Below are positions 38,209 to 59,206 of a stretch of DNA of 64,000 nucleotides, piece by piece (the first letter of the stretch is position 1; each line of letters opens with the position of its first letter). Source of the DNA: an uncultured Actinomycetota bacterium (GTDB taxonomy: Bacteria > Actinomycetota > Actinomycetes > JAFAQI01); contig CAVYQE010000001.1 in the NCBI GenBank assembly GCA_963770565.1, forward strand, positions 480,001 through 544,000. The letters are read 5' to 3'. Below the pieces are notes generated by a model that was not told the DNA's origin, ran no database searches, and worked only from the letters and a program-made list of their open reading frames with translations. Position numbers and translations under genes: made by a program.

Positions 38209-38344
38209 CGCCGTCCGGTCCGATCTGGCCCGCGAGGATCGCGAGGGAATGGCGGGCCGAGTGTGATGATGACACGACGCGGCCGGTTGCCGGTGTCGCG
38301 ACGAGCACGGCGCCGAGCTGCCCGCCAGAGCTGGGGTGGTTGAC

Positions 38345-38770
38345 ATGCACCTGCCGGACATGTGGATCGCCGGTGCAATGGAGCGGGCCGCCAAGACGGT
38401 GGCTCAAACGCTCGCCACGGGTCTGCTCGCGCTCAACATCGCGACGTTGACCACCTTCACGCCGATCAGGAACGCGCTGGTGGTTGCGGTGAGCGCCGGC
38501 GTCCTGTCGGTCCTCACCTCGCTTGGGTCCATTCGGTTGTCCAAGGGACAGTCCTTCGTCAAGAACACGATGTTGCGGTCCGCGCTGACTTTCGTGCAGA
38601 CCCTGGGTGGGGTGGCCGCCGCCGCCAAGCCGTTCAATGTCATTGACTTCCACTGGCCAATGGCACTTGCGACCGCCGGTGTCGCAGCCCTCGCGTCGGT
38701 GCTGACCTCGCTCGCCTCAGCCAAGCCCGGTCAGCCGGACTCGCCGTCACTGATCGCCGGCGTCGACTGA
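38345..38770 (+). CDS. r1t-type holin with two tandem holin domains
   Basis: ERAAKTVAQTL...AGVLSVLTSLGS repeated as RSALTFVQTL...AALASVLTSLAS...SPSL. Confidence 0.7.
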   Translation: MHLPDMWIAGAMERAAKTVAQTLATGLLALNIATLTTFTPIRNALVVAVSAGVLSVLTSLGSIRLSKGQSFVKNTMLRSALTFVQTLGGVAAAAKPFNVIDFHWPMALATAGVAALASVLTSLASAKPGQPDSPSLIAGVD

Positions 38771-38794
38771 TCAAGGGCACTGTCGTCACAGCAC

Positions 38795-38820
38795 AAAGCC
38801 CTGGACCCGAAGGCCCAGGG
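38795..38820 (-). terminator. Intrinsic terminator hairpin (probable original tRNA-Pro terminator)
   Basis: Minus strand CCCTGGGCC-TTCG-GGTCCAGGG followed by CTTTG. Confidence 0.6.
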
Positions 38821-38859
38821 ACCCGATCTCGGCGGAGATCAGATTGGTCGGGATGACAG

Positions 38860-40180
38860 TGTTCTGGTCCAGGACATCGGAATGGGGTGTCCCGCGACAT
38901 CGGAATAGCGTGTCGCAGGTCTTCGGAATAGGTGGTGGCCCGCAGGCTGCGGGATGTCGAAACGTCGTCTTGTCATCAGCGCTGTTCTGACCGGCCAGTC
39001 GCAGTCCGAGGTTGCCCGTGCCTACGGCGTCTCCCAGGGTTGGGTCAGCCGGCTGATGGCCCGCTACCGGGTGGAGGGTGAGGCGTCGTTCGAGCCGCGG
39101 TCCCGGGCCCCGAAGACCAGCCCCGGGCGCGACCGGGCCGGCGACCGTCGAAGGGGTGCTGCGGCTGCGTAAGCAGCTGGCCGAGGCCGGTCTGGACGCC
39201 GGCGCGGACACGATCGGCTGGCATCTGGCGCACCACCACGGCACCAGGCTGGGACGCACCACGATCAACCGGATCCTGGAACGCGCCGGAGTGGTCATCC
39301 CGGACCCGTCGAAGCGACCGAAAAGCTCCTACCTGCGGTTCGAAGCCGAGCTGCCGAACGAGATGTGGCAGTCCGACTTCACCCACTACCCGCTCGCTGA
39401 CGGCACCGGGACCGAGATCCTGACCTGGCTCGATGACTGCTCCCGCTACGCACTATCGGTCACCGCTCATGTCCGGGTCACCGGCCCGGTCGTGCTCGTC
39501 ACGTTCCGCAAAACGGTTGCGGCTCATGGCGTTCCGGCTTCTACCCTGACCGATAACGGGATGGTGTTCACCACCCGGTTCGCCGGCGGCAAAGGCGGCC
39601 GCAACAGCTTCGAACACGAACTACGCCGGCTGCACGTGACCCAGAAGAACTCCCGACCGAACCACCCCACGACCTGCGGCAAAGTCGAACGGTTCCAGCA
39701 AACGATGAAGAAATGGCTACGGGCCCAACCCGCCCAACCAGCAACGATCGGTGAGCTGCAAACCCTCATCGACGCGTTCGTCGACGAATACAACCACCGG
39801 CGGCCGCACCGGTCGCTACCGCACCGCGCAACCCCGGCCGCGACCTACCAGAACCTGCCCAAAGCCACCCCCAGCACCAGCCGCGACGCTGACCGCCTCG
39901 ACCGGATCCGCCGCGACCGCATCGACGACAGCGGCGTCGTCACGCTGCGCCACGCCGGCCGACTCCACCACATCGGCGTCGGCCGAACCCACGCCCGAAC
40001 CCCCATCATCCTGCTCATCCACGACCTGCAGATCCGCGTCGTCGACGCCACCACCGGCGAGCTCCTGCGAGAACTGGTCCTCAACCCCGACATCGACTAC
40101 CAGCCCCAACAACCCCCAGAAACGACAGAAAACCCCTGAACCCGCAGGTTCAAACGTTTCCTATGTCGCGAGAGATCACA
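38860..40180 (+). mobile_element. IS481-family insertion sequence with a 16-bp target-site duplication
   Basis: TGT...ACA ends; three 23-bp GACATCGGAAT-type repeats at the left end and one inverted copy at the right; TTGGTCGGGATGACAG at 38844-38859 and 40181-40196. Confidence 0.9.
38954..40139 (+). pseudogene. IS481 DDE transposase with a 1-nt frameshift near 39127
   Basis: N-terminal HTH (38954) and integrase core WQSDFT/LTDNG/GKVERF lie in different frames; removing one G from CCCGGGCGCG rejoins PKTSPGATGP. Confidence 0.85.
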
Positions 40181-40181
40181 T

Positions 40182-40258
40182 TGGTCGGGATGACAGGATT
40201 TGAACCTGCGACCCCCTCGTCCCGAACGAGGTGCGCTACCAAGCTGCGCTACATCCCG
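40182..40258 (-). tRNA. tRNA-Pro(CGG)
   Basis: Minus strand CGGGATGTAGCGCAGCTTGGTAGCGCA-CCTCG-TT-CGG-GA-CGAGG...GCAGGTTCAAATCCTGT-CATCCCG-A-CCA. Confidence 0.97.
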
Positions 40259-58138: not shown

Positions 58139-59206
58139 ATGTCCACTCCTCGACGGGTTGTTGTGCTGAGCACGAGCGAGGCGCTGGTGGCGACCGTGGT
58201 GCGGCTCGGTGCGCTTGCCGGGGCCGAGGTCGAAACGGTGCGGAGCAGCGCCGGGGCGCGCGCGGGCTGGCGGTCCGCGCACCTCGTGGTGGTGGGATCC
58301 GACCTGCTGGTGGTCTTGGCGTCAGCGCAGCTGCCGCGTCGAGCGGAGGTGGTGGTCGCCACCGGTCAGGCGCTTGACGAAGCGTCGTGGCGGGCCGCGA
58401 TTGACCTTGGTGCGCGTTGTGTCGTGTCGTTGCCGGCCGAGGAGCACACCCTGATGGAGCTCATCGGCGCCGCCGTTGATGAGGATCAGGGCCTTGGTAC
58501 GACGATCGCCGTGGTCGGTGGCTGCGGCGGCGCCGGGGCATCGACCTTGGCCGCAGCGCTTGGTGTCACGGCCGCTCGGGTCGGCTCGGCGGTGTTGATC
58601 GACGGCGACCCCTACGGCGGCGGCCTTGATGTGCTGCTCGGTGCCGAGCAACAGCCAGGGGCTCGCTGGCCGGATCTGGCCGCCACCCGCGGTCGGCTGC
58701 GCAGCGCCGCGCTCGTTGGCACGCTGGTCGCGCTCGACGGGCTGGCGCTGCTCTCGTGCGACCGTTCCGGGTCGGTCGAGTTGCCGGACGCCGCGGCCGC
58801 GGCCGTGATCGACGCGGCCAGGCGCGGGTTTCGCTGGGTGGTCGTCGACCTGCCGCGACGGTTCGACCAGGCGGCGGGCGTACTCGCGGGTGCCGCCGAC
58901 TTGGTGGTGCTGGTGGTGCCGGCCACCGTTCGGGCGGTGGCGGCGTCGTCGCTGGTCGTCGCACAGACTCAGGCCGTCTGTGGCGAGATCCGAGTCGTGG
59001 TTCGCCTCGGCGGATCCGGCCAGCTGTCGGTCGCCGAGATCGCCGGCGCATTGCGGCTCCCCGTGCTCGCTGCGGTCCAGAGCGAGACCGCGGTCACCGC
59101 GGCCGCTGAGCGCGGCGAGCCACCGTTGCGCCGGCCGAAAGGCTCGTTGCACGACGCGTGTGGGGCCGTCCTCGCCGCGGTGAACGAAGGGGGCGTTGCC
59201 GCCTGA
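58139..59206 (+). CDS. ssd: Septum site-determining protein Ssd (CpaE-like)
   Basis: GGCGGAGASTLA, DGDPYGGGLD, VVDLPR. Confidence 0.9.
   Translation: MSTPRRVVVLSTSEALVATVVRLGALAGAEVETVRSSAGARAGWRSAHLVVVGSDLLVVLASAQLPRRAEVVVATGQALDEASWRAAIDLGARCVVSLPAEEHTLMELIGAAVDEDQGLGTTIAVVGGCGGAGASTLAAALGVTAARVGSAVLIDGDPYGGGLDVLLGAEQQPGARWPDLAATRGRLRSAALVGTLVALDGLALLSCDRSGSVELPDAAAAAVIDAARRGFRWVVVDLPRRFDQAAGVLAGAADLVVLVVPATVRAVAASSLVVAQTQAVCGEIRVVVRLGGSGQLSVAEIAGALRLPVLAAVQSETAVTAAAERGEPPLRRPKGSLHDACGAVLAAVNEGGVAA

Follow-up and report, generated by a model that had tools for sequence, protein, structure and literature searches.

Bacterial insertion sequences that encode a single DDE transposase are usually taken to have little target specificity or to follow a short motif, and the IS481 prototype duplicates 6 bp at a short palindromic target. 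Elements that home precisely to tRNA ends include those with tyrosine integrases, casposons, Tn7-like elements with selector proteins, and eukaryotic retrotransposons. In eukaryotes such precision comes from tethering to host factors: Ty3, Ty1 and the TRE elements insert upstream or downstream of the gene, not within its end, through tethering to Pol III factors. Tn7-like elements use a separate target selector and AAA+ proteins and leave 5-bp duplications, and IstA and MuA each need an ATPase partner, IstB and MuB respectively, to capture a target.

Casposons have a specific integration site, the extreme 3′ end of tRNA genes, where they produce duplications of 14-15 bp, and recognition by the casposase needs 15-30 bp of tRNA upstream of the duplication (PMC6977970). 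Tn7-like elements home to tRNA genes via TnsD/TniQ (PMC9881144, PMC11406308). Within the IS481 family most elements give 6-bp duplications (PMC10045372), and the same paper quotes 2-15 bp as the range given by ISfinder and 15/16 bp for IS481EU; its main text, from which the word tRNA is absent, reports no target specificity. In the full-text literature that we searched, we came across no account of IS481 elements targeting tRNA genes. Here we analyze such an element. The best explanation, which we consider rather probable, is an IS481 clade in which a single DDE transposase reads T-arm DNA and inserts at tRNA ends, with a subterminal hairpin acting as a terminator.

Insertion site and transposase at a tRNA-Pro gene

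The window (the whole 64-kb stretch of DNA that was analyzed) holds one IS481-family insertion sequence next to an intact tRNA-Pro gene, and this is the only copy of the element in its own genome (Table 1). All features proposed by a first-pass annotation of the letters lie where it had placed them, with the TGT start at 38860 and the ACA end at 40180. The exact 16-bp direct repeat that it had described around the element is likewise seen: the window holds two exact copies of TTGGTCGGGATGACAG and no more (38844-38859 and 40181-40196). One more window site resembles it with 3 mismatches, with 0 of 100 shuffles reaching 3 matches. ARAGORN agrees that the repeat is the last 15 nt of tRNA-Pro(CGG) including CCA, plus 1 nt, and that the tRNA is left intact. 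The uninterrupted site was observed directly at locus L111 of genome G003, from the same genus, where the left flank runs through one 16-mer copy straight into tRNA-Pro. Since this empty site holds a single 16-mer copy, the repeat is a true target duplication that arose on insertion, and the window copy inserted after its lineage diverged from that of G003.

Table 1. Annotated features of the element, its flanks and the tRNA gene, in window coordinates
Feature	Coordinates	Strand	Remarks
Probable relic of an older related element's right end	38786..38843		Hairpin, then CCGATCTC....GAGATCAGA
Left copy of 16-bp target duplication	38844..38859		Orphan of tRNA-Pro positions 62-76 plus 1 nt; exact repeat
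IS481-family insertion sequence	38860..40180	+	1321 bp, TGT...ACA; relatives at full length 1288-1391 bp
Left end of element	38860..38932	+	Terminal inverted repeat and three direct copies of GACATCGGAAT-like motif (38870, 38893, 38916; 23-bp spacing)
N-terminal transposase part (helix-turn-helix)	38954..39172	+	Pfam HTH_28, E 6.8e-10; three-frame reading; ended by frameshift
Rest of transposase: DDE (rve) core and C-terminal barrel	39078..40139	+	Pfam rve, rve_3; motifs WQSD, TDNG, KVER
Frameshift run CCCCGGG	39121..39127	+	+1 shift of frame relative to intact relatives
Hairpin TGAACC-cgca-GGTTCA, contains 12-mer 40143-40154	40135..40154	-	Tail GGTTTTCTGT on minus strand; terminator-like
Right terminal inverted repeat (...CCTATGTCGCGAGAGATCACA)	40158..40180	+	Inverted-repeat search, alignment A1
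Right copy of target duplication	40181..40196		3′ end of intact tRNA-Pro
tRNA-Pro(CGG), intact, CCA encoded	40182..40258	-	ARAGORN
T loop and 5′ strand of T stem (GATTTGAACCTGCGACC on + strand)	40197..40213	-	Directly past duplication; proposed recognition determinant

The left flank resembles the element's own right end for 21 nt past the repeat (15/21 identical), and a site within it (38820-38799) is terminator-like on the minus, tRNA-sense strand. This stretch is already present in the empty site of G003. A profile search for it gave no window match at E up to 10, with L112 at E 0.012 and L111 at E 1; as this search was not significant, the reading of the flank as what is left of an older related element's right end is graded only as probable. 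The left neighbor is a holin-family gene, and farther to the left lie dnaX, aspartokinase, asd, an ABC transporter and a methyltransferase. The holin-family neighbor hinted at a prophage integrated at tRNA-Pro; this reading was dropped, given the genes beyond it and the lack of a third copy of the repeat in the window.

A single open frame of 384-441 aa, without programmed frameshifting and in line with the IS481 family, encodes the transposase in 63 of the 64 distinct relatives that were read through, whereas the window copy is split by a +1 break and is probably inactive, as judged from its reading frames; the frameshift could also be an assembly error. In alignment A2, D140 and E244 are invariant and D199 is almost so, and we take these three to be the DDE catalytic residues. 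Against the NCBIfam IS481 model (NF033577, cut-off 224) relatives score 234.3 (the intact L056), 247.3 (L159) and 281.6 bits (L154); the truncated ORF of the window reaches 176.9 bits, under the cut-off, with IS481 still its best family. The element has the TGT...ACA terminal inverted repeats of the IS481 family, and we count its 15/16-bp duplication as within the family range. A Pfam search of the element found HTH and rve domains only, with neither a tyrosine nor a serine recombinase among them, and the element, which has one gene only, lacks an accessory ATPase gene. The modelled transposase has an RNase H-like core; its nearest solved folds are IS21 IstA, MuA and retroviral integrases, with TnsB also among the nearest, and Ty3 integrase (7q5b) is a sequence match. 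The GACATCGGAAT-like copies at the left end are presumed to be transposase binding sites, and within each relative the left-end motif variant agrees with the right-end variant.

Position, orientation and duplication length across the clade

For a census we fetched 80 of 555 reported relatives, and 83 window-clade loci with a readable right flank were reduced to 80 by dropping 3 duplicates; as both the genomes and the elements are related, these loci are not independent of one another. The first-pass annotation had proposed a tRNA-targeting IS481 subgroup and suggested reading the flanks of homologous transposases. The flanks bear this out strongly: tRNA-derived sequence adjoins the element at 79/80 loci, and duplications are of 15 or 16 bp. 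The T-loop motif lies 14 nt (48 loci) or 15 nt (25 loci) from the terminal ACA, giving 73/80. Among the others, three of the 80 loci are tandem elements with a tRNA-end spacer between them, L017 adjoins a tRNA-Met fragment and L160 adjoins tRNA-like sequence of poor quality. At L011 the orientation is reversed at the same tRNA-Ala site, and L053, with a 16-bp duplication, is the only non-tRNA insertion. Insertion thus has single-nucleotide precision and a fixed orientation at 78/80 loci; position and orientation are direct observations here.

Duplication length was read directly at the 52 loci that had a called tRNA and no fewer than 150 nt of upstream sequence. Repeats of at least 13 bp were found in 39 of them (15 bp in 25, 16 bp in 11, 13 bp in two and 17 bp in one); the remaining 13 gave only repeats of at most 11 bp, and the lengths refer to the 39 loci with resolved left ends. 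A 16-bp repeat could be thought of as 15 bp with a chance base, which is ruled out by the tip-to-T-loop distance, itself 14 or 15 nt and tracking repeat length. Indeed, one 100% identical element has a 15-bp repeat at one tRNA and a 16-bp repeat at another. Copies in one genome with 100% identity across 1344 bp are found at tRNA-Pro(GGG) and tRNA-Met, and copies with 99.93% identity lie at tRNA-Met and tRNA-Ser; identical copies at different tRNAs reflect recent movement.

These data also bear on whether the repeat is a transposition footprint at all. Insertions at tRNA ends are harmless and would be kept, and tRNA 3′ ends are classic att sites, which together could suggest random insertion with survival of harmless copies, or att-type recombination. 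Selection, however, cannot give the precision and orientation seen at 78 of the 80 loci. The repeat is fixed in length, differs in sequence tRNA by tRNA even for identical elements and is not carried by the element, so that no shared att core is found; tyrosine and serine recombinase domains are missing, and the empty site has exactly one copy. We therefore regard such an origin as scarcely credible.

In the transposase tree, a quick search rooted at the midpoint, a branch with SH-aLRT 98 unites all 61 tRNA-adjacent rows with 21 rows that lack a flank and three others, and the same targeting occurs across many actinobacterial families. A tRNA-targeting IS481 clade of Actinomycetota, with a fixed position, a fixed orientation, a 15/16-bp duplication and many tRNAs as targets, is strongly supported.

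Target recognition and the subterminal hairpin

After de-duplication, 57 full tRNAs of 16 anticodon types are targeted (Pro 20, Arg 14, Met 9, Ser 8, Val 2, Thr 2, Tyr 1, Ala 1), a breadth that is observed directly. Fragments of tRNA 3′ ends that ARAGORN did not call adjoin 16 loci, counted before de-duplication, and therefore only the 3′ part of a tRNA is needed. At the non-tRNA site L053, CAACCGAACGTGCGAC stands in place of the GATTCGAACCTGCGAC of tRNA targets, with 11/16 identities in the same register and outside the duplication. T arms of the CAGG..CCTG type are found in 49/73 targets versus 9/59 tRNAs of G000, the one genome used as background (Fisher p 1.2e-9). The T-loop motif is present in 47/59 tRNAs of G000, and Leu, Gly, Glu and others are absent among the 57 events, so the motif alone does not account for the choice of tRNA. 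Beyond the CAGG..CCTG preference, our search for a simple rule of tRNA choice found none; the choice could reflect selection against polar insertions in clusters, an extra sequence preference, or sampling.

How the T arm is recognized can be considered in light of these targets. The duplication matches the last 15 nt of mature tRNA and only the 3′ part of a gene is needed, to which a tRNA made elsewhere could pair; this would fit a transposase that binds mature tRNA paired with the gene (62-76), an R-loop or a transcription complex. Yet the L053 duplication is not a tRNA end while its T-arm-like motif lies outside the duplication, fragments without a promoter are used, the distance of the insertion point from the T loop is unchanged with or without an encoded CCA, and in a distant IS481 group the 15-bp duplication is located 6 nt farther along the tRNA. 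Targeting through RNA or transcription is on this evidence quite unlikely. The restricted set of tRNAs could instead reflect a host protein at or near tRNA genes that tethers the transposase, as TFIIIB/TFIIIC do for yeast Ty3. We know of no bacterial factor that would bind T-box DNA in tRNA genes, and the same targeting in many actinobacterial families, together with the use of promoter-less fragments and one non-tRNA site, speaks against a tether, which we hold to be very unlikely. Direct reading of T-arm DNA by the transposase is most likely, judging from the pattern of sites.

A further proposal, made by the first-pass annotation, was that the element selects its target by base pairing or T-arm mimicry. 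The 12-nt perfect complement on which it rested (40143-40154 / 40199-40210) was found again, and of 2700 shuffles of subterminal regions none reach 12 nt and 0.7% reach 9 nt. Real subterminal regions also have a slight edge over shuffled ones in their match to tRNA 3′ parts (6.5 versus 5.4 nt), and the hairpin has a core, ACC...GGT(T/C)C, that is invariant in sequence beyond what structure requires and resembles the GGTTC of the T loop. All three would suit a hairpin that pairs with or mimics the T arm as a nucleic-acid guide. The suggested covariation of the subterminal 12-mer with the T arm is nevertheless missing: the longest complement averages 6.5 nt for cognate and 6.51 nt for non-cognate pairs (permutation p 0.56), and the 12 nt of the window are the maximum of 54 cognate pairs, the other 53 having 4-9 nt. 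At L050, L057, L058 and L102, elements of one type, all with the same right end, adjoin tRNAs whose T arms differ, and whole identical elements occur at Pro/Met and Met/Ser. In many clade members the sequence is GGTCC, which departs from the T loop, and the mismatches of the hairpin indicate function on the opposite strand. Guiding by this hairpin is thus highly improbable. The annotation had itself named a hairpin without a link to the target tRNA as the outcome telling against its proposal, and that is what we find, with the terminator-like form on the opposite, tRNA-sense strand.

The hairpin takes this form on the minus strand only, facing transcription from the tRNA gene. Computed hairpin energies were -25.8 versus -14.2 kcal/mol. 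Compensatory changes are seen in 7/9 predicted pairs, and one pair has nine A.C mismatches on the + strand that equal G.U on the minus strand. The 10-nt tail has 6.0 U on the tRNA-sense strand versus 3.3 on the other; both the covariation and the strand bias are plain observations. With a G+C-rich stem, a U-rich tail and a conserved structure, the hairpin has the features of an intrinsic terminator, and it probably stops tRNA read-through into the element. The invariance of its core hints at a second role, for example in protein binding.

Taken as direct reading of DNA, insertion would proceed as follows. The transposase would recognize the double-stranded T loop and T-stem 5′ strand (GGATTYGAACC and a few bases), with the right end of the element facing the tRNA body. 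Two strand transfers 15 or 16 bp apart would fall between tRNA positions 61/62 and just after 76 or 77. Gap repair would then copy positions 62-76(77) and rebuild an intact tRNA gene at the right end, leaving a 15/16-nt orphan at the left end; because the tRNA end is duplicated, the host gene would stay intact and unharmed. The hairpin with its U-rich tail would terminate tRNA read-through in place of the displaced tRNA terminator, and would shield the transposase gene from antisense transcription.

Distant relatives and comparison with known systems

Four site types were seen among actinobacterial IS481 relatives with ~15-bp duplications. The window clade uses tRNA 3′ ends with the element's right end toward the tRNA; a second type also uses tRNA 3′ ends, with the geometry reversed and the site displaced by 6 nt; a third lies a fixed 29-30 nt from a TCGAAC-N4-GTTCGA palindrome resembling the actinobacterial LexA box; and a fourth lies at the center of a palindromic repeat. 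We tentatively put forward, as a possibility worth entertaining, that these relatives form a super-group of single-protein DDE transposases with ~15-bp duplications, each branch having evolved a sequence-specific landing site of its own. If the transposase alone reads these sites, they would be a natural series of compact, re-targetable site-specific transposases.

For the window clade itself, a one-gene element of ~1.3 kb homes with single-nucleotide precision to many tRNAs and rebuilds the gene that it enters. It offers a new and tractable example of safe-site targeting and, being compact, a candidate for studies of target reading by DDE enzymes, and it places the unexplained 15/16-bp class among IS481 duplications in a biological setting. 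For annotation, an ‘integrase core domain’ gene by a tRNA with a partial tRNA repeat can be misread as the border of a genomic island or prophage. Repeated insertions leave tandem copies and relics downstream of tRNAs, which may be reused as tRNA terminators.

Among known systems, the IS481 prototype of Bordetella pertussis shares with the clade a single DDE transposase with an N-terminal HTH and TGT...ACA inverted-repeat termini; the clade differs by its 15/16-bp duplications, one defined place in the tRNA and fixed orientation. ISMac4, ISA0963-1 and IS481EU (parabasalids) have both TGT...ACA ends and duplications of 15 or 16 bp, but their hosts are archaea and protists whereas those of the clade are Actinomycetota (PMC10045372). 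Casposons work similarly, with integration at tRNA 3′ ends and a comparable duplication length. Their enzyme, however, is of the unrelated Cas1 type and not a DDE enzyme, they are large archaeal elements that replicate themselves, and their duplication overlaps only the last few tRNA bases, unlike the 15 nt of the clade (PMC6977970).

Tn7-like elements also insert beside tRNA genes (PMC9881144, PMC11406308) and have a DDE transposase of the same structural class, but they rely on the separate selector and AAA+ proteins, whereas the element of the clade has a single gene. Phages and integrative elements with tyrosine integrases use the same tRNA 3′-end address, rebuild the tRNA and leave partial tRNA copies; the clade has neither the recombinase nor an element-borne att core, and instead has a tRNA-dependent repeat of fixed length. 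Ty3, Ty1 and Dictyostelium TRE share an integrase-fold enzyme and tRNA genes as safe sites, but are eukaryotic and move through RNA. Finally, the modelled transposase shares with IS21 IstA, MuA and retroviral integrases the order HTH, HTH, RNase H core and C-terminal barrel, while the element, unlike IS21 and Mu, carries its transposase without an ATPase partner gene.

The element and its insertion site

An IS481-family insertion sequence at the 3′ end of a tRNA-Pro gene, flanked by a 16-bp repeat that leaves the tRNA intact, had been proposed in the first-pass annotation, and the element, its termini, the repeat and the intact tRNA were all confirmed in the window (see the table). The 64-kb window holds only these two exact copies of TTGGTCGGGATGACAG. 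From the position of the tRNA call, the right-hand copy is made up of the final 15 nt of the tRNA (CCA included) and one further base. The termini form imperfect inverted repeats, and three direct repeats resembling GACATCGGAAT, with 23 bp spacing, lie at the left end. IS481 is the top curated family match for the transposase. The window copy is probably a pseudogene, barring an assembly error in the run CCCCGGG, because, set against intact relatives, it shows a +1 frame break there, while 63 of the 64 distinct relatives read through have a single open frame of 384-441 aa. The window's own genome contains no second copy of the element.

Features of the window at and around the insertion
Feature	Position	Strand	Remarks
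IS481-family element	38860-40180		1321 bp; TGT first, ACA last
Flanking direct repeat TTGGTCGGGATGACAG	38844-38859 and 40181-40196		exact 16-mer
tRNA-Pro(CGG)	40182-40258	minus	intact; ARAGORN
HTH domain frame	38954-39172		overlaps rve frame
rve integrase-core domain frame	39078-40139		overlaps HTH frame
+1 frame break	39121-39127		run CCCCGGG
Left neighbourhood genes			dnaX, aspartokinase, asd, ABC transporter, methyltransferase, lone holin-family gene
Phage_r1t_holin-family gene	38336-38770		E 2.2e-20
tRNA-like ARAGORN call	58505-58594		90 nt; two-base anticodon, undetermined; probably false, in G+C-rich sequence

The uninterrupted site exists in a congeneric genome (G003, locus L111), where a single 16-mer joins the left flank directly to the tRNA; judged from these sequences, the 16-bp repeat is a true target duplication. 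A prophage was considered for the left neighbourhood and rejected, as that neighbourhood is housekeeping in character. The lone holin-family gene has housekeeping neighbours and no other phage genes nearby.

Of the 21 nt to the left of the repeat, 15 are identical to the element's own right end, and the stretch is preceded by a hairpin at the position equivalent to that of the element's own hairpin; this stretch is also found in the G003 empty site. This flank is probably a relic left by an older insertion; the hairpin in it is terminator-like on the sense strand of the tRNA and may now be the tRNA terminator. The reading is no more than probable, because a profile search for the relic gave no statistical support. 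At the three remaining loci of the genus with a read flank for this tRNA, the sequence ends in ...TCACA in G004 (L112) and G002 (L114), and a live element of another subtype is found in G001 (L113). Left flanks shaped like an element's right end also occur in three relatives (ATCACA in L080 and L098, ATGACA in L103), which would fit tandem insertion. Downstream of tRNA-Pro(CGG), a relic resembling a right end or a live other-subtype element is seen in the window (38786-38843) and in G003, G004, G002 and G001 (L111-L114), and elements seem to have inserted here more than once.

The insertion rule among relatives

Relatives of the transposase were gathered by a DNA search of 61 related genomes, a one-genome-per-species scan (best 80 of 555 relatives kept) and a protein search covering 151 genomes of the class, and scripts placed the transposase, element tip and tRNAs at each locus. 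Counting was limited to loci with a readable right flank and 47% or more identity to the window protein, giving 83, or 80 once three duplicates were removed; the source genome of one of them (L006) is flagged unpublished, and no conclusion rests on it. In 73 of the 80, a T-loop motif is found at a distance of 14 nt (48 loci) or 15 nt (25 loci) from the ACA terminus, and in those 73 the tRNA and the transposase lie on opposite strands. The 80 also include three tandem elements with a tRNA-end spacer between, L017 at a tRNA-Met fragment, L160 at tRNA-like sequence of poor quality at a contig end, and L011, which has the same tRNA-Ala site and a 16-bp duplication but reversed orientation; only the insertion at L053 is away from tRNA-derived sequence. 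The tRNA 3′ half alone adjoins the element in 16 loci (before de-duplication), so a complete, transcribed tRNA gene is not needed; partial tRNA copies of this kind are left by integrated elements. A quick maximum-likelihood tree places all 61 tRNA-adjacent rows on one side of a branch (SH-aLRT 98), together with 21 rows without a flank and three others, and the hosts of the clade span many actinobacterial families. The tRNA-targeting IS481 subgroup suspected from the window alone is real and broad.

Duplications were counted in the 52 loci where a tRNA was called and the upstream sequence was long enough. Of these, 39 are flanked by a repeat no shorter than 13 bp (15 bp in 25, 16 bp in 11, 13 bp in 2 and 17 bp in 1), and the left end was not placed in the other 13. 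The repeat ends at one fixed T-stem base every time, and therefore spans tRNA positions 62 to 76 or 77. Sixteen anticodon types are represented among 57 full tRNAs after de-duplication (Pro 20, Arg 14, Met 9, Ser 8, Val 2, Thr 2, Tyr 1, Ala 1). Leu, Gly and Glu are absent from these 57 events, though 47 of 59 host tRNAs carry the loop motif, which by itself does not account for the restricted set. Identical or near-identical copies adjoining different tRNAs show recent movement under one target rule: one genome has copies 100% identical over 1344 bp at tRNA-Pro(GGG) (15-bp repeat) and tRNA-Met (16-bp), and another pair, 99.93% identical, is divided between tRNA-Met and tRNA-Ser(GCT).

Related elements also form tandem arrays with 15-17-bp tRNA-end spacers between them (L108, L084, L055, L074, L045). 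Successive spacers of L108 are unlike each other, which suggests recombination between copies at different tRNAs.

Target choice and the subterminal hairpin

It had been proposed that a 12-mer near the right end selects the target by pairing with the tRNA T arm or mimicking it. This 12-mer is one half of a hairpin directly past the transposase stop codon, in which 7 of 9 predicted pairs show compensatory change across 37 relatives and the core ACC...GGT is invariant. When the subterminal region is compared with the 3′ part of the tRNA, the longest complementary stretch averages 6.5 nt for an element's own target versus 6.51 nt for non-cognate tRNAs (permutation p 0.56), the 12 nt of the window being the highest of 54 pairs (others 4-9 nt), and identical right ends are found at tRNAs with different T arms. 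The hairpin does not follow the target, and pairing or mimicry is not supported. A terminator is the explanation that suits the hairpin best. It scores as terminator-like on the minus (tRNA-sense) strand alone, with the tail GGTTTTCTGT; its folding energy is -25.8 kcal/mol there versus -14.2 on the plus strand, A.C mismatches of the plus strand correspond to G.U pairs on the minus strand, and the 10-nt tail averages 6.0 U on the tRNA-sense strand versus 3.3 on the opposite one. The best reading of these features is an inward-facing terminator, which would stop transcription leaving the tRNA gene, stand in for the terminator displaced by insertion and shield the transposase gene from antisense transcription.

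The T loop and its stem, just outside the duplication on the right-end side, are the sole sequence common to all targets. At L053, the duplication is a clean one of 16 bp in non-tRNA sequence, and next to it stands CAACCGAACGTGCGAC in the place taken by GATTCGAACCTGCGAC at tRNA targets, a match of 11/16 in the same register. The comparison speaks for a direct reading of double-stranded T-arm DNA rather than for pairing inside the duplication. The CAGG..CCTG type of T arm occurs in 49/73 targets versus 9/59 host-genome tRNAs (Fisher p 1.2e-9, with one genome as background and target events that are related rather than independent). The structure modelled for an intact relative (pLDDT 84.7) contains two HTH domains, followed by an RNase H-like core and a C-terminal barrel of six strands; among solved structures, IS21 IstA, TnsB, MuA and retroviral integrases are closest to it in fold. 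These enzymes rely on partner ATPases for target capture, and the element, with one gene only, encodes none; the transposase itself is thus the likely reader of the target.

Other IS481 groups and known systems

A more remote IS481 group with 28-38% identity to the window protein (L147, L148, L163-L167 and four copies in G074, L154-L157) is also found at tRNA 3′ ends (Lys, Arg, Thr, Met), arranged the other way round: tRNA and transposase point in one direction, with the tRNA at the element's left end, and the 15-bp duplication covers the last ~7 nt of the tRNA and ~8 nt downstream. A group 33-37% identical (L138, L149 and L150 in G184; L025; and L168, G000:C1:1456090-1459668, in the window's own genome outside the window) has 14-15-bp duplications and, at 5/5 loci, a TCGAAC-N4-GTTCGA-like palindrome 29-30 nt from the right tip. 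This palindrome, which we take to resemble the actinobacterial LexA (SOS) box, shares TCGAAC of its half-site with the T loop. In a further group (L140 and L151-L153, four copies in G158), insertion with a 14-15-bp duplication is at the GGGCGCATATGCGCC-like centre of a larger palindromic repeat, the arms of which flank each copy. The window's own genome also has, outside the window, about a dozen tRNA genes within 1 kb (G000:C1:1157415-1158406; Trp, Pro, Gly, Leu, Gln, Lys, Asn, Arg, His, Arg), resembling the tRNA arrays of phages or mycobacterial plasmids.

The full-text literature searched contained no report of IS481 elements targeting tRNA genes, and ISfinder and supplements may hold notes. 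Duplications of 15/16 bp are described for ISMac4, ISA0963-1 and IS481EU without target specificity in the parts consulted of the paper on IS481EU, the main text of which does not contain the word tRNA (PMC10045372). The clade is a new, target-specific variant inside the known IS481 family, and its precision and small size give it clear interest for transposition biology. Its nearest functional parallel is the casposons, for which the specific integration site is the extreme 3′ end of tRNA genes; they produce 14-15-bp duplications and depend on tRNA sequence upstream, but use Cas1 as their enzyme, unlike the DDE transposase of this clade (PMC6977970).
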